From the sequence record SRR20825006_1900: 39,977 bases of DNA, one strand, 5' to 3'. A model generated the notes under the pieces. The model was not told the DNA's origin and ran no database searches. It saw only the letters and a list, made by a program, of their open reading frames with translations. Positions 1 to 16,757 of this stretch are shown here, in pieces. The position numbers and the translations under genes were made by a program. How positions within the stretch are numbered: the stretch's first letter is position 1; each line of letters opens with the position of its first letter.

Positions 1-2889
1 CACCGAGAAAATTTCCCACGGTTCGCCATCGGTTTCCCAAGTGAGGCTTTCGTTCTGATCGGTGTCTTCCGCATCAGCCGCGATAATGTCGGCCGGCACC
101 CGCTGACCATTGAGGTAAACCTGCCAATCAATATCGAATGCAGGCGCCGTCCCATTGCTGTTGGACAGCCCGATAGGATTCACGCCCTGATAAAGATCAT
201 CCAGGCGGTCGCCGGACCAGCTACCCGTGTTATAGACATTGATGGTGTTGGTCAGATTGTCCAGCGTGGCGCGGATTTCCACCGGACCAAACACCCAGCT
301 TTTGCGAATAATGTCTCCGGCCTGATAGTTATTACGGGCACCACAGGACCAGTCCAGCCAGTAAATCGCATCACGAAAATCGCCGGCACCGCCACTGGCA
401 ATACCACCGCCGGTAGCTTCGGAACCCTGTGGGCAGTTCACCACCGCCCGGGTAGACACCTGGTAGTCTTCCACTTCGCCATCATCCGCACCTTCATAGG
501 GATCGATGGAGGGCGTGGTTGACCAGCGGAAACGGGTGATCACATCATTGGCATCCACTGTGCCCGTTGCCGCACTGGCAACAATGTCGATCTGTCCATC
601 GCCATCCGTGTCCTGAAGATCCTCAGCAATTTGCTCTCCGGCATCATCAAAATCCCCATCCTGGTTCCAGTCCACCCAGGCCTGCAGATAACCACCATCA
701 CCTTCCACACTGACCGAAATCGGGTTGATGCTCGGCAGCACGGAAGGAAAGGTCACCCCGTCATCAAAGGTGTCGGCATCGGCATTGGGATCCGCGTATC
801 CGCCCACATCCTCTGAGACATCGACGCCAAGACGAATGCCATCAACCAGAACATGAGACGGACTCTGGTAACTGGCAGGCGCATCGCCGTAGTCAACCAA
901 CACCTGAGGAGGGGCGTCGATCACACAGACTTTCTGCAGGTTGCTGGAACCGCCGGTGGAACCGGTAAAACCGAAGAACACATTCGGGTCGCCGGCAAAA
1001 TCCAGAGTGGTGAAGTCCCGATTCACAACAGCCACAAGAGAGCCATCAAAGCGGTACTGAAGCTGGTTGGATACCGGATCCCAATCCAGTGACACCGTGT
1101 GCCAGCCTCCATCCTCAATATTGCCCAAATCCACCACGGGACTTAGCAGACTTCCTCCACCGTTGTTGCTGGTATAGTTAACCGGGTCATAAATAACGGT
1201 ATGGTCATTGGCGATATCGCCGTACCCCCCACCGTTGCTATAGGTATCAAATTCCACCGCCACGGCCGGATCCAAACCGCCCACCCCCAAGGCACCACCA
1301 AACACACCGGTCGCACTGCTGCCGGCATCGTCATTCTGGAAGGCAAAGGCAATCCCGTCCGCGCCACTAGCGTCTTTTGTCCCCAAGTAGATGGAAAATT
1401 CCACCGTAAAGGGGGAAAGCAGACTAATGCGATTCTGTGACCAGGCAGAGCCGGACTGATTGCCACTATCCTGGGTCAGGGTAATTTCATTACTAGATGT
1501 ATTTCGCGTGGCACTGCCACTGAGCGACAGGTTCGCACTGATTGCGGCATCACAGGTTTGTGACGTGACATTCAAGCGGTAATCTTCCACCTCACCATTT
1601 CCCGCGTTGTTGCCTATCCCGGGATTTGTTGACTCGGTAAATTTAAAACGCGCATAGGTCACACCGGACGCAGCAGAACCCGGCACATTAATGGTCACCG
1701 GCGTGACCGTAACGAAATTGGAGGAATTATTGCCGCTGGATGTTTCGCCGTTATTGGTGATCTGACGATTGGATACCATCCGCTCGCCGGCATCGCTGAA
1801 ATCCCCATCCCGGTTCCAGTCGAACCAGACGTTCAGGTAACCCGAACCGTATGTGGTCACCGACAGTTCGCTTTGCTGCCCCGGAAAGATGGATTGATCA
1901 TTCAGAGCGCTTCCGCCCAGGGTAACGCCATCTTCATCGTCAAAGTTGACAACCGCGCCCCCCGCCCCATCAAGGTCATCACCGTCCGCGCCCGCACTGG
2001 CTTGCTGCGCACTTTCATGGTCTGGCACCAGACCGGCACCCAAACCCAGAAAACTGCTTACAGCCTGTCGGGCAGCCACATAGGGCGAAGGGGCATCGCC
2101 GTAATCCGTGTTGCCGTCCACCACATCATCGAAATCGTCAACACGCAGAGACAAATAGGAAACACGCCGGGCGGTACTCGACGAGCTTTCTGTTCCGTAC
2201 GCATTATCATTCTGAACCCGAAAAGACGCATTGGATGTTTCCGAAAACACCACACTGGCACGGCACTCGGGCTCGACGGTTGTGGCACCGTCGGTGCAAT
2301 CAGTATCCCGCCCTTTTATGCGCGTGTTATAGCCGCCAGACGCCGATGAAGAAACGGTGGTATCCGTGTTAACGGACACATAGGAACGCGTTTTTTCACC
2401 GGTGTTGAAGTAAAGGTCATCACTGCCTGTGCGAGAGTTGTCCGAGTTTCGATCGAGATCGAACCCGGTAACGATCAGCCGGTCCACAACAACAGGCGTG
2501 GTGGTTCCCTGACGAACCACCGTTAACCGCAAATCCTGGTAGGCAATATTTTCGCCGCTATCCTTGTCTCGCAAACTGGCAAACAACACGCCCTCTTCCA
2601 CTCCCAGACACTGGAAGCTCCCGGCCTGCTCATTGTCTTCCTGCAGCACCTGAACCAGAACATCCAGCGCCTGACCGTCGTAGCTTGCGGATGTACCAAA
2701 CCGGTATGTCGCCTGAGAACAGTCACTGCCGCTAAGAATTGTCCGCGAACCATTCAGCGGCAGACTAATAGCTTCTGCGGCCCCACTCACCAGGCACAAG
2801 CCGATAAAGAGCATGGCAATAAAAACCTGCATTGCCAGCAACCCTGCAACCAGTTTGCCTTTATTTTTTTTCGGTTCGGTTGTCTGCAT
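1..2889 (-). CDS. Large secreted adhesin, 3'-truncated by the window edge (>=963 aa): signal peptide, unknown N-domain, GEVED domain, L-type (legume-like) lectin domain, second GEVED domain, CshA-NR2-like domain
   Basis: Not in the ORF track; translated by hand. ATG at 2889, 4 nt after the upstream TAA, open to position 1. Starts MQTTEPKKNKGKLVAGLLAMQVFIAMLFIGLCLVSGAAEA. Contains DYGDAP...DDEDGV...YLNVWFDWNRDGDF...GEVEDY (GEVEDY at 1579-1596), then ADGIAFAFQ...AVEFDTY...WHTVSLDW...FFGFTGSTGG (lectin), then DYGDAP...YLQAWVDWNQDGDF...GEVEDY (463-480), then IYWLDW...ADAED. Confidence 0.88.
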   Translation of the reverse strand, partial: MQTTEPKKNKGKLVAGLLAMQVFIAMLFIGLCLVSGAAEAISLPLNGSRTILSGSDCSQATYRFGTSASYDGQALDVLVQVLQEDNEQAGSFQCLGVEEGVLFASLRDKDSGENIAYQDLRLTVVRQGTTTPVVVDRLIVTGFDLDRNSDNSRTGSDDLYFNTGEKTRSYVSVNTDTTVSSSASGGYNTRIKGRDTDCTDGATTVEPECRASVVFSETSNASFRVQNDNAYGTESSSSTARRVSYLSLRVDDFDDVVDGNTDYGDAPSPYVAARQAVSSFLGLGAGLVPDHESAQQASAGADGDDLDGAGGAVVNFDDEDGVTLGGSALNDQSIFPGQQSELSVTTYGSGYLNVWFDWNRDGDFSDAGERMVSNRQITNNGETSSGNNSSNFVTVTPVTINVPGSAASGVTYARFKFTESTNPGIGNNAGNGEVEDYRLNVTSQTCDAAISANLSLSGSATRNTSSNEITLTQDSGNQSGSAWSQNRISLLSPFTVEFSIYLGTKDASGADGIAFAFQNDDAGSSATGVFGGALGVGGLDPAVAVEFDTYSNGGGYGDIANDHTVIYDPVNYTSNNGGGSLLSPVVDLGNIEDGGWHTVSLDWDPVSNQLQYRFDGSLVAVVNRDFTTLDFAGDPNVFFGFTGSTGGSSNLQKVCVIDAPPQVLVDYGDAPASYQSPSHVLVDGIRLGVDVSEDVGGYADPNADADTFDDGVTFPSVLPSINPISVSVEGDGGYLQAWVDWNQDGDFDDAGEQIAEDLQDTDGDGQIDIVASAATGTVDANDVITRFRWSTTPSIDPYEGADDGEVEDYQVSTRAVVNCPQGSEATGGGIASGGAGDFRDAIYWLDWSCGARNNYQAGDIIRKSWVFGPVEIRATLDNLTNTINVYNTGSWSGDRLDDLYQGVNPIGLSNSNGTAPAFDIDWQVYLNGQRVPADIIAADAEDTDQNESLTWETDGEPWEIFSV

Positions 2890-2893
2890 CGTT

Positions 2894-5773
2894 TTACTCC
2901 ACCCGTAACCCGAAAATAAGAACGGCGGTTTCACCCGCTTTCAATTCGCCCACATTGACCGACACATCACCGGTACCCGCTTCGGCAGGTGCAACCACAT
3001 CGGCGCTGCAATCCCCCGAGGGAAGCTGGCAACGGGTGGCAGCAGACAGCATGGTTGTGAACGGCTGGGTGCGATCATTAATGGTCACTTCATACATGCT
3101 CTGCGCCCCGGTATTGGCTGCCGTCAGGCGATAAATCACGCACTGCTCGCCAGGTGTTGCCGTAAATCGGGTATAGACAAAACAGCCATCCGCAGTACAA
3201 CTGCCCGGGCCATCCGGCACGCCATCACAGTCGGCATCCAGTGCCTGCTCTTTGGTCACGGCCACATCGGTATTGCTGGTCGTGGTGGAATCCGTCGCCG
3301 TGTCGGTCACCGTCTGCCCGGCACCTTGTGCCGTAACAGTGAGCGTCTTGAGGTTGGTAATGCCGTACGCTGCCGTGGCCGGGGCAAAAACCCGGGCGAA
3401 CACGGACAGGCTCTCACCCACGGCAAGCACACCATCTGCCCCGGCAGTCTGCAGAGGAGTGCCATCGACAATCAGGGTATCCGCCGTATCCCATTGGCCA
3501 TTGCCGTTGCTGTCCTCGTAGAGGGTAATCGACCAGCCATTGTCACTGGCGCTGTCAGGCGTGCCGCTGAGCAGCACATTGGTCAAATCCACATTACCGG
3601 TGTTGGTGAGCTGATGGCTATAAAGCACGCTGCTGCCCGGCGCCACTTGCCCGGTCTGGTCCGGCTGCAGGGAAAGTGCCGGTCCCGCCACTACGACCAC
3701 CTGATCCAGCTTGATGTCGCCGGCATTACTGGTCGGCGACAAGGCTCGCAGGTACAGCGGCAAGGTATCGCCTCCGCTAGCCGATTCCGGCACCGTGACC
3801 TGGGCACACACCAGCCGCTGGCTACCTGCCGGCACCAGCCCGGTATTGGTAATGGCAACGCCATTGGCGCTGCAATCTGCCGATCCACCATCACGGTAGA
3901 AGGTCACGCTCCACCCCGCAGGCAATTGCCCCGGATTGAAATTGCTGTTGCTGGCGTGCAGGTCGTAGCTGTCCTGCCGCGGCCCGGTGTTATTCACATA
4001 CAACACAAAGGTGCCATGATTACCCGGGGCGACTGACAGGCTGCGCACCGGCGTCGCTTCCGGTCCTGGTCCTTCACCCGGAGCACTGCCGTTAACCGGC
4101 TGATCGTTGGTCAGGTCCACACTGTTTGTCGCAATACTGATGAGTGTGTCGGTCACCGCATTACGGACCTGGGGGTCCGTAACGGAACTGGCGACCTTGG
4201 TGACCTGAAAGGGGCCACCCAATGCATTGGGCGGCAGAATCACCTGTAGAACAACGCGCACGCCGCACACACCATTGCCGGCATCGCGGACAAAGCGGGA
4301 TGGGCACTGGCCACCTTGATCGACCAGCGGGATCGGCCCGGTATCCGGTACCCCGTTGCCATCGGTATCCACCAACGGGGTTGCACCATCGGCCTTGAGC
4401 AACTGGAAGACAGTGCCCTGGGGGAAGGGCTCGCTTAACGCTGCCCCGGAACGGTCGTTAACGGCGTCGAGAGTGATATCGAAACGGTCTTCGCCATCGC
4501 CGGTATTCCAGATCACGTTATTGAACAGCACGGTGCCACCCTGACCGGCACTGGCAATCTCGACACGGTTACCGGTATCGCTCACGTCATCGCTACCGGT
4601 AATGCTGTCATTCTCACTGTTGTTGGCCACCACCGCTGGCGCCAGCGCCCGATCGATAACAAGGTAGCTCACCGCATTGGTACTGAACGGAGACGGCGTA
4701 CCGAAATCCGTATCGCCGGCTTCGTTGGAGTAGCGGAAACGGCCAGTATTGCGAACCCGGTCGCCGGCACTCAGGCCCGCATCCAGGGTAACCTCGAACG
4801 TGAGAGTACCCACACCGCCCGGCGGCAATTGCGCCACGACCGCTTGAACCCGGTCCTGACAATCCGGTTCGGCCGCATCCGTATCGTAGGCACAATAGCG
4901 GATCAGGTTAGGGGCATTGCCCTGATCACCATCATCGCCATCGTCGGTGAGTGGGGTGTTGCCGGTAAAGGTCCAGCGAGCGGAATCCGGCACATAGGTC
5001 ATGCCTGCTGACACCCCATCCACGGAGACGGTGGGCAGCACATCTTCAATGACGATATCCGTGGCCGCCTGGTCCGATGGGTTACGGTAATCCAGAGTGA
5101 CGGTGATTGGCCCGTCCGGGGAACGGCCCTCCCGCTGGCTCAATGACTTGACCACTTCAATCACCGGGCCATCGATGACATCCGCTTCATCCGTATTGAT
5201 GGCCAGCAGGGTGTTATCCGCATCACTGCGCGCACGAACCTGCAATGACGGCTGCTGGCCCGCCACCGTTCCCGCCGACAATTCCGCTTCTACCACCAGC
5301 GAGAAGGTTTCGCCGGAAATCATGTCCGGGGTCAGATTATCCCAGCAGCCATCTGCGTCAGACTGGGTAAACAAGGCGCCGCCCGCATCCGGTTGGCCAT
5401 CGCCGTTACCGTCGGCGTAAACGGCCCAGGCATCAATGTCGCTATCCACATTGGTAATACACAACTGATACTGGTCGTGACCATTACCGGTATTGGTCAA
5501 TACATGGGAGAAGTACACCAGCCCACCTGGCAGCGCCGGCTTGCCCTGATCACTGACCAGTTCAATGCCCGGTACGTTCTGCACCAGTGTCTGCACCAGG
5601 TTGGAGGTCACCCGTTGTGCTTCCGCCTGCTCCGTACAGCCATCATCCAGACAGGCCCGGTAACTCGCCGACGCCTGGTTCTTGATCACGGTGCCTGCCG
5701 CAGGCGTGGCCGCCTGAACACCGCCCCCCAGCATCAGCAGCACCATCAGCCCTGTACGTTGCAGTTTATTCAC
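2894..5773 (-). CDS. Secreted multi-Ig/DUF11-domain protein (959 aa), putative minor fibre subunit
   Basis: Signal peptide (..GGGVQA). Repeated PG-x-V-x-F/Y-x-H-x-L-x-NTGN Ig-like units, one complete DUF11-type domain (VVKS..IEDVLP..RVRNTG..STN) and DxNGxG Ca-binding loops. Collinear paralog of 12825..15791. Confidence 0.8.
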   Translation of the reverse strand: MNKLQRTGLMVLLMLGGGVQAATPAAGTVIKNQASASYRACLDDGCTEQAEAQRVTSNLVQTLVQNVPGIELVSDQGKPALPGGLVYFSHVLTNTGNGHDQYQLCITNVDSDIDAWAVYADGNGDGQPDAGGALFTQSDADGCWDNLTPDMISGETFSLVVEAELSAGTVAGQQPSLQVRARSDADNTLLAINTDEADVIDGPVIEVVKSLSQREGRSPDGPITVTLDYRNPSDQAATDIVIEDVLPTVSVDGVSAGMTYVPDSARWTFTGNTPLTDDGDDGDQGNAPNLIRYCAYDTDAAEPDCQDRVQAVVAQLPPGGVGTLTFEVTLDAGLSAGDRVRNTGRFRYSNEAGDTDFGTPSPFSTNAVSYLVIDRALAPAVVANNSENDSITGSDDVSDTGNRVEIASAGQGGTVLFNNVIWNTGDGEDRFDITLDAVNDRSGAALSEPFPQGTVFQLLKADGATPLVDTDGNGVPDTGPIPLVDQGGQCPSRFVRDAGNGVCGVRVVLQVILPPNALGGPFQVTKVASSVTDPQVRNAVTDTLISIATNSVDLTNDQPVNGSAPGEGPGPEATPVRSLSVAPGNHGTFVLYVNNTGPRQDSYDLHASNSNFNPGQLPAGWSVTFYRDGGSADCSANGVAITNTGLVPAGSQRLVCAQVTVPESASGGDTLPLYLRALSPTSNAGDIKLDQVVVVAGPALSLQPDQTGQVAPGSSVLYSHQLTNTGNVDLTNVLLSGTPDSASDNGWSITLYEDSNGNGQWDTADTLIVDGTPLQTAGADGVLAVGESLSVFARVFAPATAAYGITNLKTLTVTAQGAGQTVTDTATDSTTTSNTDVAVTKEQALDADCDGVPDGPGSCTADGCFVYTRFTATPGEQCVIYRLTAANTGAQSMYEVTINDRTQPFTTMLSAATRCQLPSGDCSADVVAPAEAGTGDVSVNVGELKAGETAVLIFGLRVE

Positions 5774-5785
5774 TCCAACTCCCCT

Positions 5786-6406
5786 TTACTTGACTGGCGC
5801 CGGCGGCACAAATTCATCGCCGCCACTGCCGGCAAAGTCAGCCCGCAATACCAGCGGGCGGCTCTGCGCATCCAGCGGCATCAACTCAACACGGCGGTTG
5901 ATGACCCGTTGTTCGTTACTGGCATTTGACAAAATAGGTAGTTCTTCACCCAATGCGACGCGTTTGATGCGGCCATTACTGATACCCCCATCTCGCAGGT
6001 ACTGCACCACCTGGTCCAGGCGGCGAGCCGCCAGTTTCTGGTTATAACTTGCTGCGCCTTTTTCATCGGTAAACGCCTGCACACTCACCTGCAGGGTCGG
6101 GTACTGTTTCAGCACCGCCAAATTACTGTCCAGCCGGCGCACCTCAGCCTCGGCCATCTGGCTCTGATCAAAACCAAAATACACCGCCGGTTCCCAAACC
6201 TGGGTACGACTTTCACCTGCCATCAGGCCTGCTCCGCCGCCAGCAGCAATCCCGGTGACCGTCACCAGGCCGTTGCTCGTTACCCTGGCTTCCACCGGAC
6301 ACAGCTCATCATACTGTGCATACAGAGACTCGGTGCTGGCACATCCGGCCATTACTGCCATGCTCGCCAGGATCAGTAACGCCAGCCGCGCTTTCATCAT
6401 GTTCAT
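5786..6406 (-). CDS. OmpA-family (OmpA_C peptidoglycan-binding) lipoprotein
   Basis: Lipobox MAGC; VYFGFDQS, FTDEKG..YNQKLAARR, NRRVEL motifs; ATGA overlap with the upstream gene. Confidence 0.9.
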   Translation of the reverse strand: MNMMKARLALLILASMAVMAGCASTESLYAQYDELCPVEARVTSNGLVTVTGIAAGGGAGLMAGESRTQVWEPAVYFGFDQSQMAEAEVRRLDSNLAVLKQYPTLQVSVQAFTDEKGAASYNQKLAARRLDQVVQYLRDGGISNGRIKRVALGEELPILSNASNEQRVINRRVELMPLDAQSRPLVLRADFAGSGGDEFVPPAPVK

Positions 6407-9400
6407 CGCGCATCTCCCAGATAACTGCGCTGCCCGGCGGCTTTACTGCCCAGCCAGCTCAGGTCATCTTCATCGAATTTGTATTCCAGTCCAACAAACA
6501 CGCCTTCTGCGTTATAGCCTTCCGGGTCCAGGTCATCGTCACGGAAACCGGTGAAGTTATAGCCCACGCCCATGCGCAGATTACGGCGCACCAGTGCATT
6601 GACGGTAAAGCCGTAGCTGTAACGGCGCTCTTTAACGCCTTCCGTGGTAATCGCACCACCATGCAAATCCAGATCAAAACGGCGGGTGATATCCCAGATA
6701 ATCCGGCCATCCGCCACATAGGCATCCGATTCCACATCCAGATTGCCCAGCTCGGTTTGTTGCCATTTGGCGCCCAGGCGACCAGAGAAAATCCAGTCGT
6801 CATGGGCCTGATAGTTATGGTGAGTGGAGAACAAATGCACAGTGCGATCACTGCCGCCACTACCGCCCCACTCTTCTTTCCATTTGTACATGAACAACAT
6901 GTGGTGACGGTTATCCCGACGCGGACGGCGGGCCATCCCCAGGGTGACAATGTTGTCGCCTTCCTTGGCTTCCGTATCGAAATACTGCAGGCGCAGGTCA
7001 TCACGCACCACCGCAGACCAGTCGGTATTCACTCGCCAGATATTGGCCGCACTCAGACCGTAGTACTCACGATCATCGCCAAAGCGGGTTTCCACCCGGC
7101 CCAGGGTACGACGGTTTTCATTGCGCTTGTCTTCTGCCCCCACGGACAGGGCCGTGGCGTCCTGATTGGTTTGTCCGTCCAGTGTCTGAATCCACTCCAT
7201 GGACGGCGACACGGTGAGCCCCGGTTCAATTTCAATATCCGACTTCACACCATTGGCGGCTGCTACATCACGGCCATCCACGGCACCGCGCAAACGGTAC
7301 TCGGAATACACATCCGTATTGCGGGTGACCGCGGAACGCACACCGGTGGTGAACTGCTGCGTTTCCACATCATCATCCAGCGTATTGATACCATTCAGAC
7401 TGTTGATGATTTCGTAACGGCTGTAGAGGCTGGTTTTCTCGGTGAGCTGCATGTCCGCGTCGGCCGCGATACGGCGGCGACTGGTATCGTTGAAGGCCTG
7501 CTCATATTCCGCGCCGATCTGGAAGGGTTTGCCCAACAGGTTAAAGCCCCGATCAGCGCCGAGAATATAGGTGCCGAAATCTTCACTGCCCTGGGCATCT
7601 TTCTGCTCGATACCGCGCACCCCGCCGCGCAAGGCGGTGGCGCCGATACGTTTTTCCCCGATCACGCCCAGGCTGTTCTGCTCTTCGGAGCCGTCCAGCT
7701 GCTTGGACCGGATGCCTTCCACTTCCACGGAGAAATCCCGGGCCAGCATCTGTTCGTGGCCCAAACGCATTTCTTCACGAGCGGCACTGATACCCGCCGA
7801 CGGGTTATCAAACCCCGCCTCCGCGCGCGCCCAGCGCAATTCGGTACGCGAGCCATCCACCCACAAACGCTCACCATTAATGCTGTAGGCGCGCCCTTCC
7901 GGGTCATTGTTTTCATGGGCCATGGAGCCTGAAGACACATTGATGCGGGTATTCTCGTCCAGCTTGTATTGAGCGGAAACGCTGGTCAGGTCGAAGCCTT
8001 CCGTTTCATGGTCATCCTGGGTGCGGCTAACGCCCAGCTGTAGCTGATCGGTCAGGTCGTAGTTCAGGCGCGCGCCGAGTACATTGTATTCTTCGGCATC
8101 GCCTTCCACGTTATAGCTCACGCGAACAAACACCGGATTCAGGCTGTCATCCACCGTGGGCACCACATCGTGGAAGCGAATATCACCGGTAAAATAGTTC
8201 ACCGAATAATCCACATAACGGGTCAGCGGCGTGGTTTCGATGACCAGCCCCGGGTTGTTGCGGTCACGGACAATAATTTCCACGGTTTCACTGTCGCGGG
8301 CCGGGTCGTTGCTCAAGGTAAACAGCAGCGCCGTACCATTACCCGGCAGCTCTTCTGTCACCTGCTCCATATCCGGGCGGGCAGCGAACACCTGGAAGCG
8401 GGCACGGCCGTTGTCGTAGACCCCATTCAACCCGGTCAGGGTACGCTGGGTCCGGCCCAGGTCGTAGAAATCGTTCTGCGGATCGGTGAGGTAGTCCCCC
8501 CACATGATGCTGCTGCGGTCTTTTTCCAGTTTCGCATACAGTTTGCTGCGACTGCGGGCATCGTAGCCGCGCACAGAGGCATCACCGGGGATCGGATAGT
8601 AATCTGCCGGGTTCAAATCACGGCGCACTTCGTCTTCGGTATCCAGATCCTTGTCGGTGTCGTAGGCCAGCGTCAGGTGGGCATCGCCGCGGACCTGACC
8701 TTTCATAAATACGGCAGCCCGACCATCCACACCGTCTTCAAATTCGTCGGCCACATCCGTGGGCGCATTTCCGTTGTCGCGCAACCCACCGGCGCGGCTT
8801 TGCACCTGTAAAAAACCGGTTGCCAGCAACGGACGAAGAGGGGCGATCTGCTCAATCTGGATGCTGTCGCTGAAACGGTCCAGAGTGGCGCGCAGACGCA
8901 CCGGCCCGGTGTATTCCGTGCTGCGCAGATGAGCCAGCGCCACCCCGTCCACCAGTTTGATTTGATGTCCCGGTGTGCCGCTCTGCAAATCCTCTTCCAG
9001 CCACTGGCCGCGATCGGTTTCCAGTGTCACAAAGTGGCTGCCCAATGCCGGGTTGCCTTTGGCATCATTGAGACGAACACGCACACCCAGGGTTGAGCGC
9101 CCACCGTCTGCGGGCAGCGTATCGGATTCGGTTTCCAGGGTGATAGACTGCGGTGCAGCCGGGCGCACCACGGTTTTTTCTGCCATCACCCGCTCGTTAC
9201 CGAACATGTCCCGGGTGCTGACTACCAGCGTGTTTTCCCCTTCACCCAGGGTAACGCCGTACCAGGTAACAACCTGAGCGCGCTCGCGCTTGTTGACCAC
9301 CTGTTCGCCCAGCTGCGCCTTGGCTACCGTCTTGCCATTCACGCTCAGTACCGGATCCACCCCGGCACGTACCACTACCTGGAAACGACCATCACGGCTG

Positions 9401-12400
9401 ACGCCCCCGCGAGGCCACAACCAGGCACCCTGTTCCGCCTGCTCACGAGTAATGCTGGCCGCCGCTTCCTTGGTGTTCTGCATGATGGCTTCCGGGTTGG
9501 CCGGCAGTACCGCGGCCGTATCCGTTTTCTCGCCCTGGGACTGGGAGACTTTTTCCCAGGCAGCGGTGAGTCCGTCATCCCCGGTCTGGGTATAGACACC
9601 GCTACCCAAATCACCACTGCCGTCGGCCTGACGCAAAACCGGATTGATGGTTTGCTGACGCAGGGGATCAAAGCGAGCGGCTTCATCCAGCATCCAGTCA
9701 CCGTTCATGGAGGCATTGCGGGCTTTGAGTTGTTCCGCCAGTGCTTTCGCCTCATCGCCGGCGGGACAAACGGCGGCAAAGTCCGCACGGTGATATTCAC
9801 CGGAGCGCAAATCCACAAACCGGCTTTCCGGGTCTGCCGCGTGGCGGTTATCGATAGGCTTGAGTTTGACACCAGCCGGCAAGGTCAGCGGGTCCACCTT
9901 GATGGTATGCAAACCCGGGTTCAGGCCATAAACGCTGTACTGGCCGTTCTCGTCGGTAATCACCCAGGTACCGTCCTGCAGGTACAGCTTCACGCCACCA
10001 ATGGGCCACTCGCCATCGTTCTGCAGGTTATTACAGTCCGCATCCACATAGACTTTACCGAACAGCATGGCCTTGTCTGACAGCACGCCTTCGTTGCGGA
10101 TCTCCACTTCGGCTTCGTCCTGGTTGGAACGGTAGGTAAAGCCGGAAGCCGTATTGGCCTGGGCCGTGGCCCGGTTGATGCCGTCACTGTCCACCGCGGC
10201 GGCCGACAACCGCAAACCGTAATGCAGTGTCACCGTTTCACCCGCCTGCAGTGGCAGTGCCACTACAGAGCCATTACTGCGCTCGCGCTCCAGGCGGAAG
10301 GTCAGCTGTGGACCAGGACGGCCCGCCGGATCTGGCATTTCGATGCGCTGCCCGCCCACGTCCAGCCAGGCGCTGTCATTGATGTAGCGAAAACCATAGG
10401 GCAACTGATCGATAATCCTGCCGGCGTAAAGCGCATCGGTGTGGTTGTTGGTCAGGTTGATGCTGTAGGCCAACACATCACCCACCGCAGCGCTGTCCTT
10501 CTCCACATTCTTGTCCAGCACCAGAATCCCGGCAGCGGTATTGGCGCTCGGGTCCAACGGAATATTCACAAACACATTCGAGGTACCCAACAGGAACGCC
10601 CCGTTGTTACTGCCCGCCACCCGCGCAGCTTTACGCCCCACCGGCGCCTGATAACCTTCCAGGCCGTAGGAGCTGTCATTCACATCCGAATAGAAGCTGC
10701 CCGCTGCAGCAGGAGACACCACTGACGGGAAGGTATAGCCCGCCGGTGGCAATACATCCAGGTAATAGCAGTGGCCCGGGGTAGCAAAGGGGTACTGGTA
10801 ATCGCCCAGCACAGAGGTGTTATCCACGTTGGCGGTATTGGTGTTTTCACCATCCAGGCTCTCACCGGTGAAAGGGTCTGTGCCCACTTCATAGTCGCTT
10901 TGCGCCAGATCCGCACAGCTGCCCGCGCCACTGGCCGATAAGGTTTGCCGGGACTGGTACAGAATCACCTGCGCACCACCCACCGGGTTGCCGTTGCTGG
11001 AGTCAAAGACGGTTCCGGCCGGGTCCACCGCGGCCACATCGGACACCACCTCATAACGCTCAACATTGCCGGTGGGACCATAAATCGGCATCTGAAAACG
11101 GGCGGTCAACGTATCGCGGGCCTCACTGCGCAACGCACAGGCCTCATCCAGCACCTGACTTGTGGTGGTATTACTATTGAATTCCTGCGCCTGGGAGGTA
11201 CTCGCGGTGGAGGGGCACTGGCGGCCGTAACCGTTTTCATCATTGCTAAGCACAAACGGGCGAATACTGCGGAATACACCGGAATCCGGTGTCGTCTCAC
11301 TCATGACAACGCGCAAGGTGTCGCCGGTCAGGGCCGATTCCACGGTCACAATAATGAGGCGCTCACCGGAGGGTCCTCGCTCCAGGAAATCCCGTTGGGT
11401 CGGGGACAGGTTCAGCTGTGAGGCGTTCAAGCGCAGGTAGACGCCATCGGTGAGTACCTGATTGTTTTCAGCGGGCAACAGCGCATACATATCCGCTAGC
11501 TGGAAGTCGCTGTCCTCGCTGTGCCGCGGCGCCTGCCCGGAACCGGACACCTGTGGCGTGGGGCGCTCGAATACCAGCGTCGGACGAACCGAACCCGCCA
11601 GGGTGTTGCACACCGTATTACTGAAAAAGTCGTCCGCGCCATCGCCATCGGTATCAACAACCGCCTGGTTGTAAATCCGTGTATTGCTGGTCAACCCGGT
11701 GCCGACCTGAACACCGAAGGTAAAGCCGCCAGACTCATTGGATTCCATGGCCGACGCGGGAACCAAAACGCCAAAGCGGTCCACTGGCGTGGACGGTGAC
11801 CACAGATCAAAGCGGATCCATTCATCATCCGCATCGCCGGAACGGTGCACCACCGCGACAGATTGAATTGGCGAGATACCGGTAGCGCTGCCCGGGCGTA
11901 ACTGCACGTTCGCCGGCAAGGCATCTTCCAGCATAACGCCCTGCTCCACCTGACCACTGATCAGGAAGCGCCTTTCTGCGGGGGCGCTGCTGCCGGTATT
12001 GGTATAGCTGATGCTGTAGTCCAGCGATTGCCCTTCCTGGGCAGGGTTATCACAACTCTGGCTGCTCGACTTGGTCAGATTCAGGAAGGCGCCAGAAGCC
12101 ACCGTGACACTGTCTTGCCGTGAGTCGGACACATCAGCATCCGTTTGCGACTCGGCCAGTACCGACACTCTCAACACATCATTCTGACCTTGCCCGGACG
12201 TCACCGTGCCTGCCACCACGAGGGAAAGTGACGCGCCGGCAGGCAAGCTCACCGGCGCCGTAATTTCCGGTTCACCGGCATCGACCACACCGTTGCCGTT
12301 CACATCTTCATACAGACGCAAATTCAACAGGTCACCATCATCGCCGGCACTGTTCACCGCCGTCAGGCTGTAGTCATCGTCCACATTGCCGGTATTGGTC

Positions 12401-12663
12401 AGAACATGGGGCAGGTTAACGCGCTGGCCGGCGGCCACTGTCAACGCATTGTTGTTACCCAGCAGCACATCACGGTATGGCGCCACAACAAGTTGGGACA
12501 CATTGGAACTCTGCGTGACCACCTGCCCGGTAAGCGGGTTCAGGTAACGGACCTGGGCCTGGTTACGCAGCACCGTACCGGCCGGGGTGGCAGCCGCAAT
12601 GGCGCCGCTGGCAATCGCCAGCAGCGTCATTACGCTGATTGTCCAAACCCCGATCCGATTCAA
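6403..12663 (-). CDS. Giant outer-membrane protein: N-terminal Ig/DUF11 domains, SdrD-B/Cna-B-like and invasin-like Ig domains, ~800 aa C-terminal beta-barrel
   Basis: ORF 6403..12729. Likely start is TTG at 12663 (AGGA 9 nt upstream), which gives a clean signal peptide MNRIGVWTISVMTLLAIASGAIAA. Two complete DUF11-type domains; GKVYVDADCNN..ITDENGQYS; amphipathic strands from ~8844 ending GVFVGLEYKF. Confidence 0.8.
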   Translation of the reverse strand: MNRIGVWTISVMTLLAIASGAIAAATPAGTVLRNQAQVRYLNPLTGQVVTQSSNVSQLVVAPYRDVLLGNNNALTVAAGQRVNLPHVLTNTGNVDDDYSLTAVNSAGDDGDLLNLRLYEDVNGNGVVDAGEPEITAPVSLPAGASLSLVVAGTVTSGQGQNDVLRVSVLAESQTDADVSDSRQDSVTVASGAFLNLTKSSSQSCDNPAQEGQSLDYSISYTNTGSSAPAERRFLISGQVEQGVMLEDALPANVQLRPGSATGISPIQSVAVVHRSGDADDEWIRFDLWSPSTPVDRFGVLVPASAMESNESGGFTFGVQVGTGLTSNTRIYNQAVVDTDGDGADDFFSNTVCNTLAGSVRPTLVFERPTPQVSGSGQAPRHSEDSDFQLADMYALLPAENNQVLTDGVYLRLNASQLNLSPTQRDFLERGPSGERLIIVTVESALTGDTLRVVMSETTPDSGVFRSIRPFVLSNDENGYGRQCPSTASTSQAQEFNSNTTTSQVLDEACALRSEARDTLTARFQMPIYGPTGNVERYEVVSDVAAVDPAGTVFDSSNGNPVGGAQVILYQSRQTLSASGAGSCADLAQSDYEVGTDPFTGESLDGENTNTANVDNTSVLGDYQYPFATPGHCYYLDVLPPAGYTFPSVVSPAAAGSFYSDVNDSSYGLEGYQAPVGRKAARVAGSNNGAFLLGTSNVFVNIPLDPSANTAAGILVLDKNVEKDSAAVGDVLAYSINLTNNHTDALYAGRIIDQLPYGFRYINDSAWLDVGGQRIEMPDPAGRPGPQLTFRLERERSNGSVVALPLQAGETVTLHYGLRLSAAAVDSDGINRATAQANTASGFTYRSNQDEAEVEIRNEGVLSDKAMLFGKVYVDADCNNLQNDGEWPIGGVKLYLQDGTWVITDENGQYSVYGLNPGLHTIKVDPLTLPAGVKLKPIDNRHAADPESRFVDLRSGEYHRADFAAVCPAGDEAKALAEQLKARNASMNGDWMLDEAARFDPLRQQTINPVLRQADGSGDLGSGVYTQTGDDGLTAAWEKVSQSQGEKTDTAAVLPANPEAIMQNTKEAAASITREQAEQGAWLWPRGGVSRDGRFQVVVRAGVDPVLSVNGKTVAKAQLGEQVVNKRERAQVVTWYGVTLGEGENTLVVSTRDMFGNERVMAEKTVVRPAAPQSITLETESDTLPADGGRSTLGVRVRLNDAKGNPALGSHFVTLETDRGQWLEEDLQSGTPGHQIKLVDGVALAHLRSTEYTGPVRLRATLDRFSDSIQIEQIAPLRPLLATGFLQVQSRAGGLRDNGNAPTDVADEFEDGVDGRAAVFMKGQVRGDAHLTLAYDTDKDLDTEDEVRRDLNPADYYPIPGDASVRGYDARSRSKLYAKLEKDRSSIMWGDYLTDPQNDFYDLGRTQRTLTGLNGVYDNGRARFQVFAARPDMEQVTEELPGNGTALLFTLSNDPARDSETVEIIVRDRNNPGLVIETTPLTRYVDYSVNYFTGDIRFHDVVPTVDDSLNPVFVRVSYNVEGDAEEYNVLGARLNYDLTDQLQLGVSRTQDDHETEGFDLTSVSAQYKLDENTRINVSSGSMAHENNDPEGRAYSINGERLWVDGSRTELRWARAEAGFDNPSAGISAAREEMRLGHEQMLARDFSVEVEGIRSKQLDGSEEQNSLGVIGEKRIGATALRGGVRGIEQKDAQGSEDFGTYILGADRGFNLLGKPFQIGAEYEQAFNDTSRRRIAADADMQLTEKTSLYSRYEIINSLNGINTLDDDVETQQFTTGVRSAVTRNTDVYSEYRLRGAVDGRDVAAANGVKSDIEIEPGLTVSPSMEWIQTLDGQTNQDATALSVGAEDKRNENRRTLGRVETRFGDDREYYGLSAANIWRVNTDWSAVVRDDLRLQYFDTEAKEGDNIVTLGMARRPRRDNRHHMLFMYKWKEEWGGSGGSDRTVHLFSTHHNYQAHDDWIFSGRLGAKWQQTELGNLDVESDAYVADGRIIWDITRRFDLDLHGGAITTEGVKERRYSYGFTVNALVRRNLRMGVGYNFTGFRDDDLDPEGYNAEGVFVGLEYKFDEDDLSWLGSKAAGQRSYLGDAR

Positions 12664-12712
12664 TTCACGATTTCCTGTCGTTCCCACGCGGTGCTTGAGC
12701 ACCTTTTTTTGG

Positions 12713-12820
12713 GCCGCCCCAGCGGCCATGTTTTTAGAGCTTTCTCAGACGTTGCGCACAGCGCCTGAGAAAGCTCTCCCCCTTCCCCGCACAGGGGAAG
12801 AGGAAGAGCCCGGGAGGGGC
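12713..12820 (-). other. Cluster of intergenic stem-loops downstream of the putative major subunit gene
   Basis: Perfect 13-bp inverted repeat AGAGCTTTCTCAG/CTGAGAAAGCTCT (12736-12777); CTTCCCC/GGGGAAG (12782-12800); GGCCGC/GCGGCC near 12713-12727. No U-tract on the coding strand. Confidence 0.65.
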
Positions 12821-12824
12821 TTGC

Positions 12825-15791
12825 TTAGTTCACTTGCACACAGAACTGTGCATTGGCGTTATCACCCGCTGGCAAATCACCCACGAGCCACTCCACAACA
12901 GGCGCGGTGCCGGAGTTGGCCACCGAGTTGTTGTCCGAGGCACGCACAGAGTCTTTGGCGGCCAGGAAGGAGGTGTACGGGGTGGTTTCATCAGTGATGG
13001 TCACGTTCTTCGCCGTAGCCGCACCTTCATTGGTTGCCGTCAGGCTCCAGATCACACACTGACCCGGCTCCACTTCCGTGGTCTGGGTAGCAGCGAACGG
13101 GCTATCGGGTGTCCAGGTCGGGGAGGCATCGTTACAGCTACAATCCGCATCCACGCCGGCCGTCTTGTTCAGACGTACCTGGCCGAGAATGACTTCGGTC
13201 AGGTCGGTGGCGGTGGCAGACGCATCGGCACCCGCAGTGTTGTCTTCATTTATGGCAGACAGGGTCAGGGTGTCCTGGGTGCCCTGCGGCGCATTGGCCG
13301 GCGCGAACACCGTCACCTGCAGTTCCACTTTCTCACCCGCTTCCAGCGTCAGCTCCGGCGCGTTATCGCCGTCTGCATCCGCCACACCGATTTGTACCGG
13401 GTTACCCGCCTGATCACGCACCCACAGCTGGCCAGCCGTGGCCAGAGCGGCGATCTGGCTCAGCTCACGGTAAGCATCGGGAGTACCGTCGTTGTTGGTG
13501 TCCACATACAACTGGGTGGTGTTGGTCCAGTCCGGCGCATTGGAGTTTGCAGCACTCAGCTCAACGGTTTCGGTGGAATTGCCGTCGTTGGAAAGCACGT
13601 GCGGGTAGTCCACATTACCGCCTGGCTGTACCTGGTTGGCACCGTCAGGAGTGATGCTGATATCACGGTTGGCAACAACGTCTACCGCATCCAATTTGCT
13701 ATCGGTAATACTGTTATCCGATGAGGAGGTCACGGTGAAGGTCACCGGATAGTCACCGTCGCTGTCGTTGGTATTAACCGCGTCACCGCCGGTGTAGTCC
13801 GCTTCGGCCTGGGCCACGTTGGAAGACACTTTCACTTCCGCGGTGTAGTGGTAAACCGCGCTGGCAGGCAGGTTCGGGGTGGCCGTTACCACGGTGCCGG
13901 CATCGACGGTGTTATCCAGGGTGCCATTGCCGTCGTTGTCGATACCCACTTCCTTGAATACCACCGTCCAGCCGGAAGGCAGTGTGGAACCCAGCGTATA
14001 GGACTGCGGGTTACCGGATTCATTGGCGACAAACAGGCTGAAGCTGGTGGTTGCACCGGCCGCAGCTGAATTGGTGGTGGTGGGTGTGCCGGTGTTGGCA
14101 TCCGCATCCACTGCACTATCACCCAGACCGGTTGCCGTGGCGCTGTTGGCAATATCCACAGCCGCCGCATTAATGGTCGCGAGCACACCCTGAGTGTCAT
14201 CACTTTGGTTATTGTCGCCAGCAGAGGTGGCAGTGAGCGTATAGGCATAGGGGCCTGCACCACTGGCCGACGCCGGCAGATCCGCTTTCACGGTAATATT
14301 CAGCGCATTCGCTGCACCTGGCGCCAGGGAACCGGTATCCGGGTTGCCATCGCCATTGGTATCGGTGATTTGCACTGTGCCAGCCGCATTCCAGAAGCTG
14401 TAAGTGGTGCCCGCGGGGAAAGTGCTGCCCGCCGTATCCACGCTCAGTTCAAACACATCGTCGCCGTTACCGTTGTTGGTGATGGTGTGCTTGAAGTCCA
14501 CCACGGCACCGCTGGCGGCGCTGGCGACGTTGAACACATCATCATCGGTGGTATCGGGGGCAATTTCGGTGTCGTCCGCATCCACGGCATAGGTCTGACC
14601 GATAACGGTGGTTACCGTGTTGGAAGTCACCGGGTTATCCGGGGTGTTATCACCATCCAGGTCGCCCTGGGCGGCAAAGGTGTTCTTGATCTCAGTACCT
14701 GCAGCAGCAGCCGGATCAAAGCTGACGGTATACACCACAGACACGGTGGTGTTCACACCCAGGCTGGCATCGGTCAGCAAAATACCGGGGATACCGGTTT
14801 CACCGCTGGTGCCATCGCCATCCAGGTCTACACCGGCGGGCTCATCAATAGAGGCCAGAGCTGCCGGCGTGTACATGGTGGTCGCATCCGCCGGGATATT
14901 CTGGTCCGTACCGGTATTGTCTTCGTAGGTGTCACCATTGGATGCCAACAGACCATTCACCGTGGTGATATCCACAAAGGTAGCGTTGGCCGGCACCGCA
15001 TCGAAGATGTCTACCGCGGTCGCCGCACGGCCACCGTTGTTTTTCACCGTCAGGGTGTAGGTAATGGTGTTGGCTGTCAGATCAACGGACGCCGCCTTGG
15101 TGGTTACCAGCACGGCATCAGTGGTCACTGTCACCTGGTCGCTGTTGGTATCGTTACCGTCTGCGCCGTTAACACCGTCAGAGTCATAGGTGCCAGCATC
15201 GCCGTTGGTGCCGATATCCTGTACCAGGCCACCGTCATTGGCGTCGAAGCTGCCATCGCCCCGGGTCGAACGCACCAGCAAGGTGCCATCGATGGTGGCG
15301 CCCGCTGCGGTTCCGGAGGGAACCGGCACGGCCAGGATCAGCTCGACCTGGTCACCGGCATCAACGATCACTGACGTGGCGGCGCTTTCACCGGCATCGG
15401 GCTGACCATTGCCGTTGGCGTCGATAAACACCTGATAGCTACCCGCTGCGCCGGCACCATTCAGCCCGTCCAGGGTGAAGGTATCGGTGGCATTACCGGT
15501 GTTTTTCAGAGTGTGGCTGAAGTAAACGGTTTCACCCGGCGCACCGGATTTGTTGCCGTCATTTTCCAGCGTACCCGCATAGACTTCTGCAACGGTCACT
15601 ACCGCTTCATTGGACTGTGCGGAGTAGCTGTTGCCGTTGGCATCTTCATAGGTAACGGTTGCCTTGTTCTTGATGTCCGTCCCTGCGTCAGTCAGCGCCC
15701 ACGCTTGCCCTGCGGCAAACAATAGACCCCCAGACACAAGGGATGCGGCCATTTTCGAAGACAACACGCCCTTATTGAAGGCATGTTTCAT
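12825..15791 (-). CDS. Secreted multi-Ig/DUF11-domain protein (988 aa), putative major fibre subunit
   Basis: Signal peptide (..AGQAWA), AAGGA RBS, A/T/D/N/G-rich composition, four Ig-like units, one complete DUF11-type domain (K232, D264, N370), many DxD/NGDG loops. Confidence 0.82.
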   Translation of the reverse strand: MKHAFNKGVLSSKMAASLVSGGLLFAAGQAWALTDAGTDIKNKATVTYEDANGNSYSAQSNEAVVTVAEVYAGTLENDGNKSGAPGETVYFSHTLKNTGNATDTFTLDGLNGAGAAGSYQVFIDANGNGQPDAGESAATSVIVDAGDQVELILAVPVPSGTAAGATIDGTLLVRSTRGDGSFDANDGGLVQDIGTNGDAGTYDSDGVNGADGNDTNSDQVTVTTDAVLVTTKAASVDLTANTITYTLTVKNNGGRAATAVDIFDAVPANATFVDITTVNGLLASNGDTYEDNTGTDQNIPADATTMYTPAALASIDEPAGVDLDGDGTSGETGIPGILLTDASLGVNTTVSVVYTVSFDPAAAAGTEIKNTFAAQGDLDGDNTPDNPVTSNTVTTVIGQTYAVDADDTEIAPDTTDDDVFNVASAASGAVVDFKHTITNNGNGDDVFELSVDTAGSTFPAGTTYSFWNAAGTVQITDTNGDGNPDTGSLAPGAANALNITVKADLPASASGAGPYAYTLTATSAGDNNQSDDTQGVLATINAAAVDIANSATATGLGDSAVDADANTGTPTTTNSAAAGATTSFSLFVANESGNPQSYTLGSTLPSGWTVVFKEVGIDNDGNGTLDNTVDAGTVVTATPNLPASAVYHYTAEVKVSSNVAQAEADYTGGDAVNTNDSDGDYPVTFTVTSSSDNSITDSKLDAVDVVANRDISITPDGANQVQPGGNVDYPHVLSNDGNSTETVELSAANSNAPDWTNTTQLYVDTNNDGTPDAYRELSQIAALATAGQLWVRDQAGNPVQIGVADADGDNAPELTLEAGEKVELQVTVFAPANAPQGTQDTLTLSAINEDNTAGADASATATDLTEVILGQVRLNKTAGVDADCSCNDASPTWTPDSPFAATQTTEVEPGQCVIWSLTATNEGAATAKNVTITDETTPYTSFLAAKDSVRASDNNSVANSGTAPVVEWLVGDLPAGDNANAQFCVQVN

Positions 15792-15837
15792 GGCTTCATT
15801 CCTTTAATGGATTGTGTTTTGGATTACCCTCGGTTTC

Positions 15838-15951
15838 GAAAGCCTTGCGAGAGCGGCCCCTCGTTATTCACAAGCGGTCCGCCCCTCCCCATGCGGCCGA
15901 TCGCAACGATCAAGCCGCTCGCACAAGACTTCCCGGGATCTTTCGATCCCG
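15838..15951 (-). other. Structured intergenic leader RNA
   Basis: CGGGATC-GAAA-GATCCCG hairpin (15934-15951) and a 20-bp helix, 15914-15933 with 15838-15857, with G-U pairs and one mismatch. Confidence 0.55.
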
Positions 15952-15969: not shown

Positions 15970-16440
15970 CTACTGCACCCGTACCCGGTAGCGGTATTCC
16001 TGCACCTGGTCAGGCTGCAGGCTGCCTTTCGGCTGCCAACGCACCTGGGTGTAGTCGCTGGGAGAAACCTCGACGTTCTTGGACTGGCCATTTTCGCCAG
16101 TAACTGTTTTGGTGACCGGCTCAGCCTGGAAGCTGTCGCCGTTATCAATGCTGACGGTGAAATCGGCGCTCACCTGGGTGGCAGCACTGTCTTTTAGATA
16201 AACGGTATTCGCCGGAACCGGTCCGGTAATAACCAGACCGGAAAGCGGCTGGTCACCGTTATTGGTATAAGTCAGCCGGTATTCGACAATATCCCCGGGA
16301 CTGGCCTGCTCGGCTTCCTCCACCACTTCCTTGCCGTCTTGACTGGTCACCAGATAAGAATCCATCTGGCTGGATAACGGAGCATCCGCCCAGACAGCAG
16401 CGGACATCAAGAGCATCAAAGCCGAAAAGAACAGTTTCAT
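15970..16440 (-). CDS. Small secreted stand-alone DUF11-like protein (putative chaperone or cap)
   Basis: Signal peptide MKLFFSALMLLMSAAVWA (ORF track starts at 16449); ASPGDIVEYRLTYTNNG..LVITGPVPANTVY..LQPDQVQEYRYRVRVQ. Confidence 0.85.
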   Translation of the reverse strand: MKLFFSALMLLMSAAVWADAPLSSQMDSYLVTSQDGKEVVEEAEQASPGDIVEYRLTYTNNGDQPLSGLVITGPVPANTVYLKDSAATQVSADFTVSIDNGDSFQAEPVTKTVTGENGQSKNVEVSPSDYTQVRWQPKGSLQPDQVQEYRYRVRVQ

Positions 16441-16530
16441 GAGCAACATTCCCGGTATAAATCAGGGTCCACCCTGACCTTCACTCAATACATCGCACCG
16501 TGCGACATACCCCTATATGAAAATATTTTT

Positions 16531-16729: not shown

Positions 16730-16757
16730 AAAAAACCCGCCAGTGGCGGGTTTTTTT
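16730..16757 (-). terminator. Intrinsic (bidirectional-type) terminator after hflC
   Basis: AAAAAACCCGCC-AGT-GGCGGGTTTTTTT, ~20 nt after the hflC stop. Confidence 0.9.

Follow-up and report, generated by a model that had tools for sequence, protein, structure and literature searches.

Background

Covalent pili are known from the sortase systems of Gram-positive bacteria. Covalent fibres that need no enzyme have been described in the form of BsaA (bioRxiv 10.1101/2024.11.04.621531) and of the archaeal threads (PMC9715654). Here we compare such systems with an operon found on a stretch of 39,977 nucleotides from sequence record SRR20825006_1900 (hereafter the window), which has the gene order E, A, C, OmpA-domain lipoprotein, B, D. 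We propose that gene B of this operon probably encodes a minor subunit linking a shaft, built from its paralog A, to the tip adhesin D through DUF11 domains that are split between chains.

Intact CLIPPER/DUF11 domains (PF01345, 9IFR) form a Lys-Asn bond involving K715, D748 and N806 (Costa et al. 2025, PMC12617251), and resemble the domains of the present system in having a CnaA-like fold, a lysine on the first strand, an aspartate and an asparagine. As described in the main text of that paper, which does not use the word 'donor', the CLIPPER bond is an intrachain one, in stalk repeats arranged in tandem, whereas here the parts of a terminal domain come from different chains. The DUF11 hook of Litorilinea is likewise described as one long chain.

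In BsaA of Clostridium perfringens, a member of the TasA family, the donor N35 is reported to link to K74 of the next monomer with E56 as the acid, and mutants lose the oligomers (bioRxiv 10.1101/2024.11.04.621531). This 'exchange and lock' is reminiscent of our system in its N-terminal donor asparagine and its recipient lysine plus acid, which in our case are read from pattern and conservation. However, BsaA as described is a single small domain of the TasA fold, Gram-positive and SipW-linked, whereas the operon considered here combines a multi-domain DUF11 subunit, a two-strand donor, a predicted Asp catalyst, an outer-membrane partner and a separate adaptor. TasA and camelysin gave no Pfam match for B, and a profile of the C-terminal domain of D matched TasA chains with E-values (expectation values) of 0.74-0.92 only.

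Chaperone-usher pili (FimF/FimG, PapF/PapE/PapK) are comparable in that an incomplete immunoglobulin-like (Ig) fold is filled by an N-terminal extension and minor subunits join adhesin and rod; they are described as using one strand, a non-covalent joint, a strand-donating PapD-type chaperone and an usher family (PMC13721041). In contrast, the present system would donate a pair of strands and, as predicted, lock covalently; a dead acceptor would stand where those pili have the donor chaperone, and the membrane protein would bring a donor of its own. Usher-independent fibres based on donor strands also include the archaeal thread Saci_0406 (PMC9715654), the Tat-fimbriae (PMC11821415), for which an adaptor, TafE, has been modelled, and the Elr/WxL pilus (bioRxiv 10.64898/2026.10.17.759780), whose reported folds and envelopes are all unlike those here. 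The isopeptide bond reported for the threads joins the N-terminal amine to an asparagine of subunit n+2 (PMC9715654), as against the rebuilt Lys-Asp-Asn triad proposed below. We found no description of a split-DUF11 pilus or fibre in the literature, as covered in part and with supplements excluded, and the tables of the CLIPPER paper could list such truncated domains; the principles are known, and the parts apparently undescribed.

Gene B encodes the two halves of a split DUF11 domain

Gene B (Table 1) starts with GTG and its product ends in IFGLRVE directly before the stop codon. This terminus and the residues quoted in an earlier note on this DNA (N32, K209, D244, N342, K841 and D900) prove to be correctly numbered; the extent given there, 2894..5710, falls short of the full gene, which runs to 5773, and its end at 5710 marks the first mature residue, A22. 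The note had also described B as a collinear, strongly divergent paralog of A, richer in cysteine and directly adjoining the adhesin gene. All of this holds: a pairwise alignment spans the full length of both proteins at 28% identity (E-value 9e-82), B has 16 cysteines against 4 in A, and the ATG of gene D lies 4 nucleotides past the stop of B, with D within a few bases of the B stop in 16 of the 17 loci showing both.

The further proposal that the C-terminal truncation of B is under selection, with a conserved split triad, is supported by comparison with homologous sequences. K841, D900 and N342 are each invariant in 117/117 B homologs, and N32 is present in 115/117, the other two being N-terminal fragments; K209 and D244, which complete the internal triad with N342, are each found in 115/117. 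Thus the failure of K841, D900 and N32 to be conserved among orthologs, which the note had set against its own claim and which we looked for, is not seen. Lysine occupies more than 57 of 103 sequences in two alignment columns alone, those of K209 and K841. To place the hairpins and the C-terminal domains, we used a profile confined to the complete internal domain (columns of B 203-374, 149 positions). The hairpins at the N-termini of A, B and C map to profile positions 115-148 of 149, with N32 in the column of N342, and the C-terminal domains map to the front part of the profile, so that the Asn strand is absent there and present in the N-terminal hairpin. No more than 5 residues follow the last strand in 103/103 aligned proteins (B itself ends on the last strand of its acceptor), and an LPxTG C-terminal sorting signal with a hydrophobic tail is absent from B.

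An AlphaFold2 model of mature B has a mean predicted local distance difference test score (pLDDT) of 92.1, with 65-80 in the donor, and a predicted template modelling score (pTM) of 0.61; in it the internal domain has two strands past the strand with which the C-terminal domain ends. The internal domain assumes a CnaA-like beta-sandwich fold, matching BcpA (3rkp) with a Z score of 13.1 and a root mean square deviation (rmsd) of 3.0 over 136 aligned residues. At the family level, B scores 19.2 bits against Pfam PF01345 (E-value 0.0016; curated cut-off 24.6), which paralog A exceeds with 42.6 bits, and B passes the cut-off of TIGR01451 (26.7 versus 24). Automatic protein-atlas names for B read DUF11 only, with a recognition of 2055 against a mark of 2300. 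Sequence searches of solved structures gave a single match of E-value 0.72 for B alone, none for profile A1 and none of relevance for the product of gene E, and Foldseek with the full-length model of B recovered generic Ig chains only.

The same Lys and Asp are both present in 87/87 acceptors of A, B and D (42/42 for D alone), and each in 49/50 of the sole subunits of simpler operons. Conversely, neither is retained in any of 51 E-type proteins, lone acceptor domains with hydrophobic residues at those positions; as the loss is complete in 51/51, the Lys and Asp appear to be more than residues required by the fold. Since D has an acceptor only and C a donor only, these proteins would need partners in trans.

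Two-subunit operons and the age of B

A scan seeded with B provided the loci compared here (the best 80 of 553, of which 79 were analysed). Twenty-four of the 79 have the six-gene, two-subunit layout of the window, and all are Gammaproteobacteria (Alcanivoracaceae, Halomonadaceae, Granulosicoccaceae, Thiotrichaceae and others). Another 50 have a four-gene, one-subunit layout comprising E, one subunit, C, plus D where it is in view (25/50), which indicates that an adaptor is no general need of the system; the remaining five are split, cut or different. The split-DUF11 system occurs in at least seven named phyla of outer-membrane bacteria. The close homologs and loci carry the name Alcanivorax, and the operon is patchy within the genus, with a match in 15 of 24 genomes, all 15 of which list both A and B.

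In a midpoint-rooted FastTree phylogeny of 70 proteins, from which 24 of the 49 full-length sole subunits were omitted for speed, A (19 proteins) and B (24) form separate clades (support 1.0 and 0.996) whose sub-trees are similar; B clusters with the sole subunits (0.999), apart from A. Searches seeded with A were also run, against the seed bias of the B-seeded scan. One-subunit loci recovered by them (L140, L141, L142/L143 and L157) still score higher to B, A-type loci with a long enough contig carry B (L154, L155), and no A-like sole subunit was found among the loci searched with A seeds. As judged from these sequences, B is an old, long-kept second subunit of a system that can work without one. 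Nor is B the divergent novelty: it groups with the sole subunits of the four-gene operons, and the derived donor is that of A.

Donor keys and acceptor columns

All donors share a core I-x-N-x-A and an S-N pattern, and differ at what we term the key, positions 36, 60 and 62 of B. The key was readable in 23/24 B donors, 16/19 A donors, 49/50 sole subunits, and 16/24 and 25/46 C donors of two-subunit and one-subunit operons, respectively. An Ala-36/Val-60/Thr type is found in 23/23 B donors, 49/49 sole subunits and 19/25 C donors of one-subunit operons. A type with a large residue at 36, a small one at 60 and Val or Ile at 62 is found in 16/16 A donors and 16/16 C donors of two-subunit operons, as against 0/23 in B, 0/49 in sole subunits and 1/25 in C of one-subunit operons. 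We label the former type ancestral because of the spread of the sole-subunit key across phyla, and not on the basis of the midpoint root. Going by this distribution, the C donor has changed alongside the A donor while the B donor has not, and the simplest reading would have C and A aimed at one shared acceptor and B, as before, at adhesin D.

A CLDDGC insertion in the donor hairpin of B had been suggested as the basis of its specificity, and this we reject. C41 and C46 are present in 29/30 of the closest homologs and 0/87 of the distant ones; the loop is confined to B of the Alcanivoracaceae/Halomonadaceae type, and since Granulosicoccaceae and Thiotrichaceae B of the same gene order are devoid of it, it is not the key. 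The donor difference sits at 36/60/62.

On the acceptor side, the D domains of two-subunit operons have a mean identity of 39% to those of one-subunit operons versus 23% to A acceptors. Acceptor column 837, which lies inside the modelled interface, is Val or Ile in A (20/20) and B (21/25), and Leu in the D acceptors of both two-subunit and one-subunit operons (17/17 and 23/25). This fits insertion of A into B, but it is a single column, and other columns split differently; the acceptors of B and A also have Ala-885 in common. A steric lock, in which Phe or Tyr of D at column 885 would oppose Ala36 of B, was considered and rejected: Gly950 of the same domain offsets that residue, intact internal domains combine Tyr229 with Phe/Tyr346, and column 885 does not track residue 36 of C (3/8 versus 9/19, p 0.70).

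Structural models of the D acceptor

Donor-acceptor pairing was modelled in one ESMFold2 competition, in which the D acceptor of the nearest genome (G001, locus L037, with D 99.8% like the part in the window) was combined with the donors of A and of B. The B donor was placed in the acceptor groove with a score of 0.74, the best control reaching 0.01; the mark for this score is attained by 51/78 solved complexes and 2/108 mismatched pairs. The three runs, which differ in seed only, all favoured B over A and agree in at least 82% of contacts, with a partner pLDDT of at least 81. Their interface lists hold Lys8 and Asp62 of the D acceptor and the Asn of the B donor, and the A donor is absent from them; the register implied by the listed pairs sets the Asp against Ala34, an invariant residue two positions away from the Asn. 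The competition supports complementation as a modelled result and bears weakly on selectivity.

Foldseek with the modelled D acceptor returned CLIPPER (9IFR) as the top match (E-value 0.01, template modelling score 0.52), aligned over chain residues 20-110 only (Z score 7.8, rmsd 2.1, 90 aligned). If residue 20 of 9IFR corresponds to residue 708, as the position of the lysine indicates, the match would end eight residues before the bonding Asn806. The acceptor model also matches a hypothetical protein of Thermus, TTHA1873 (7wrk/7wwo), with a Z score of 8.0 and an rmsd of 3.1 over 105 aligned residues.

Major and minor subunits

Strong stem-loops, defined by z below -2 against 30 shuffles, follow A in 17/19 loci and sole subunits in 34/50, but B in 0/23. 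Two codon indices are higher in A than in B in 16/19 and 19/19 loci (0.65 and 0.97 for A in the window versus 0.50 and 0.77 for B), and B stands behind the 6-kb gene C and abuts D. Logan contigs of 4/21 RNA runs were placed on the search stretch 5900-15850, which does not take in B; those of three studies end at 12813, 12821 and 12813, beside the stem-loop after A, and one, of X2, crosses it, so that a transcript end behind A is weakly hinted at. By these gene-level marks the output of A would be far above that of C, B and D; A is probably the major shaft subunit, and the marks support B as a distinct minor one.

Proposed assembly and alternative explanations

We propose that after Sec export the N-terminal hairpin of one subunit would fill the two missing strands in the C-terminal DUF11 domain of another, and that its Asn would there meet the Lys and Asp of the recipient, giving an inter-chain Lys-Asn isopeptide bond catalysed by the Asp without any enzyme. 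That hairpins complement acceptors in trans seems to us very probable, and a covalent Lys-Asn lock probable, if less firmly so. At the tip, B would then convert one key into the other: the B hairpin, with the ancestral key, would enter the acceptor of D, and the acceptor of B itself would take the hairpin of A, which bears the derived key and would repeat many times. The hairpin of the outer-membrane protein C, with the same key as A, would close and anchor the chain, and E would hold hairpins reversibly. This reading of B as a minor linker joining the A shaft to the tip adhesin, in the order D <- B (one or few) <- A(n) <- C, has in our estimate a probability of roughly 0.6; in it we infer that a fibre forms, that its bonds are covalent, that A donates into B, how the subunits are ordered and what C and E do. 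A tip adaptor with distinct donor specificity, as first proposed, thus stands with regard to a minor subunit and a class-specific donor difference that points to the adhesin, its place at the tip being presumed.

Several points weigh against this reading. The fibre, the bond and the localization are reached by reasoning from genes and models. Column 839 contacts donor residue 36 in the model, yet it does not split A and B from D, and in one-subunit operons column 837 tracks residue 36 of C weakly (5/8 versus 3/19, p 0.027, uncorrected, with two columns tried and non-independent kin). The key switch may have been a single evolutionary event, or residues 36 and 60 may offset one another inside the hairpin, the locks then not being selective, and C donors are readable in only the 16/24 and 25/46 given above. 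In the competition, a direct Lys-Asn pair is missing from the 25 listed pairs, and a pass is possible through likeness to intact CLIPPER, a solved domain; three chains were used, unlike the calibration, with no alignments, no reciprocal run and non-independent seeds, close cousins passed 10/12 in the tool's own test, and the B donor is the longer of the two. The stem-loop comparison is biased against B, because B leads straight into coding sequence. Finally, as the B donor matches that of the sole subunit, which presumably polymerizes with itself, B-B chains are possible.

Of the competing explanations, the best surviving is that A and B are interchangeable shaft subunits, any hairpin fitting any acceptor and B being rare through expression alone. 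The core common to all donors, the 50/79 loci in which a single subunit does every job and the small acceptor differences at contact columns are compatible with this, but the key is strictly class-bound over several families, C changed with A where B did not, the seed-only model runs all preferred B, and B stays adjoining D; we regard it as unlikely. Slightly less likely still is that B, with D as its cap (B-B-B-D), forms a thin fibre of its own or a long tip fibrillum, either alongside an A fibre or on top of it. B does cluster with the self-sufficient sole subunits and retains their key, and its acceptors are 34% like theirs versus 30% like those of A. Against this, B is devoid of major-subunit marks, its acceptor has Val/Ile-837 and Ala-885 as in A, and a fibre made purely of B would find no matching anchor in C, whose donor bears the key of A.

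We consider it improbable that complementation occurs without a covalent lock, or that the B hairpin enters its own acceptor, with closed monomers or a fixed, short C-A-B-D stalk as the result instead of a long fibre. The bond and polymer are conjectural, and the monomer model, with its pTM of 0.61 and donor pLDDT of 65-80, leaves the hairpin position undefined; yet the Lys, Asp and Asn are near-invariant with a Lys-free control family in E, donor-only and acceptor-only partners exist, and the marks of output in A far exceed those of C, B and D. Least probable is B as a base adaptor, with C donating into B, B into A and A capping with D: the B acceptor looks fit for the key borne by C, and in gene order B comes behind C and the OmpA gene, but the B donor would then serve an acceptor of A without ever having taken the A key as C did, the D acceptors of two-subunit operons retain Leu-837 as in one-subunit operons, and the modelled D acceptor took B over A.

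Beyond the linker role of B, we put forward as a tentative proposal, at somewhat less than even odds, that these operons represent a class of pilus of outer-membrane bacteria, free of sortase, usher and donor chaperone, that rebuilds a split isopeptide domain between chains, and that in Gammaproteobacteria a duplicated subunit pair has evolved two orthogonal, self-ligating keys, B converting between them and so setting the order adhesin-B-A(n)-anchor. If true, the locking of a Gram-negative fibre through a rebuilt split DUF11 domain would add to the known modes of assembly, and the many 'DUF11 protein' operons that lack annotation would gain a function. With their three donors and four acceptors, three live and one dead, the two-subunit operons make the assembly order directly testable. 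If the two keys are orthogonal, they would be natural, sequence-encoded tag/catcher pairs ready for spontaneous protein ligation, and the swappable adhesin head may bear on the surface attachment of Alcanivorax-like marine bacteria.

Neighbouring genes and other observations

Table 1. Features of the operon in the window; all lie on the complementary strand
Feature	Position	Strand	Remarks
Gene B, 959-residue minor subunit, proposed tip adaptor	2894..5773	(-)	signal peptide, donor hairpin, Ig, complete DUF11, three Ig, truncated DUF11 acceptor
Gene B, putative Sec signal peptide, residues 1-21	5711..5773	(-)	hydrophobic core to VQA, read from sequence; homologs with similar leader
Gene B, donor hairpin, residues 22-66	5576..5710	(-)	N32 codon 5678-5680; key A36/V60/T62; lineage-specific C41-C46 loop 5636-5653
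Gene B, complete internal DUF11/CnaA-like domain	4652..5167	(-)	K209/D244/N342
Gene B, C-terminal acceptor, residues 835-959	2897..3271	(-)	K841 (3251-3253), D900 (3074-3076); without the last two strands
Gene D, adhesin (incomplete, window edge)	1..2889	(-)	GEVED, legume-lectin and CshA_NR2 domains; no donor
OmpA-domain lipoprotein gene	5786..6406	(-)	marker of the two-subunit layout
Gene C, proposed base and export platform	6403..12729	(-)	about 2100 residues; N-terminal donor with A-type key; no C-terminal acceptor
Strong stem-loop right after gene A	12770..12810	(-)	70-nucleotide fold, -43.9 kcal/mol
Gene A, 988-residue paralog, probable major shaft subunit	12825..15791	(-)	derived donor key V/A/V
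Gene E, lone acceptor domain without Lys and Asp	15970..16449	(-)	candidate non-covalent cap or chaperone

The nearest clusters of the C-terminal 819 residues of gene C are automatically named outer membrane protein (0.98), and this part presumably forms a barrel. Gene E is likely to be a reversible cap for donor hairpins. Usher and PapD families were not found in Pfam and NCBIfam scans (E-value 0.01) of A, B, C, the partial D, E and the OmpA gene, the region beyond D being outside the window. Immediately upstream of the operon, a Band-7 (hflC-like) gene is followed by a strong terminator-like hairpin at 16730-16756 of the window. Next to the acceptor Lys, the aromatic residue is Trp in A (20/20) and Tyr in B, D, E and the sole subunits.

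Some loci depart from the common layouts. A Moraxellaceae locus (L079:7039-12604) has two tandem subunits on a branch of their own, a probable independent duplication. Short subunits of 327-443 residues with the same donor and acceptor ends occur at L141:10643-11974, L144:6801-9456 and L151:1423-2439, two of them flanking an E-like gene in L144. In L062, L076, L097 and L108 the subunit genes are in two reading-frame pieces, through assembly error or decay.

In relatives, the product of gene D has about 1600 residues; its adhesive head is variable, a donor is absent, and the C-terminus is an acceptor that contains Lys and Asp. The head is exchanged among strains (L047, L044, L046, L039) while the acceptor is retained: the identities of head, stalk and acceptor are 56/92/96% in L047 and 20/38/77% in L046. 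L047 also has a divergent allele of gene A (820-3801), with 81% identity in the body, 82% in the acceptor and 97% in the donor, whereas its B and C are 96-99% like those of the window; this suggests, as far as the sequences go, that the shaft gene has been exchanged.

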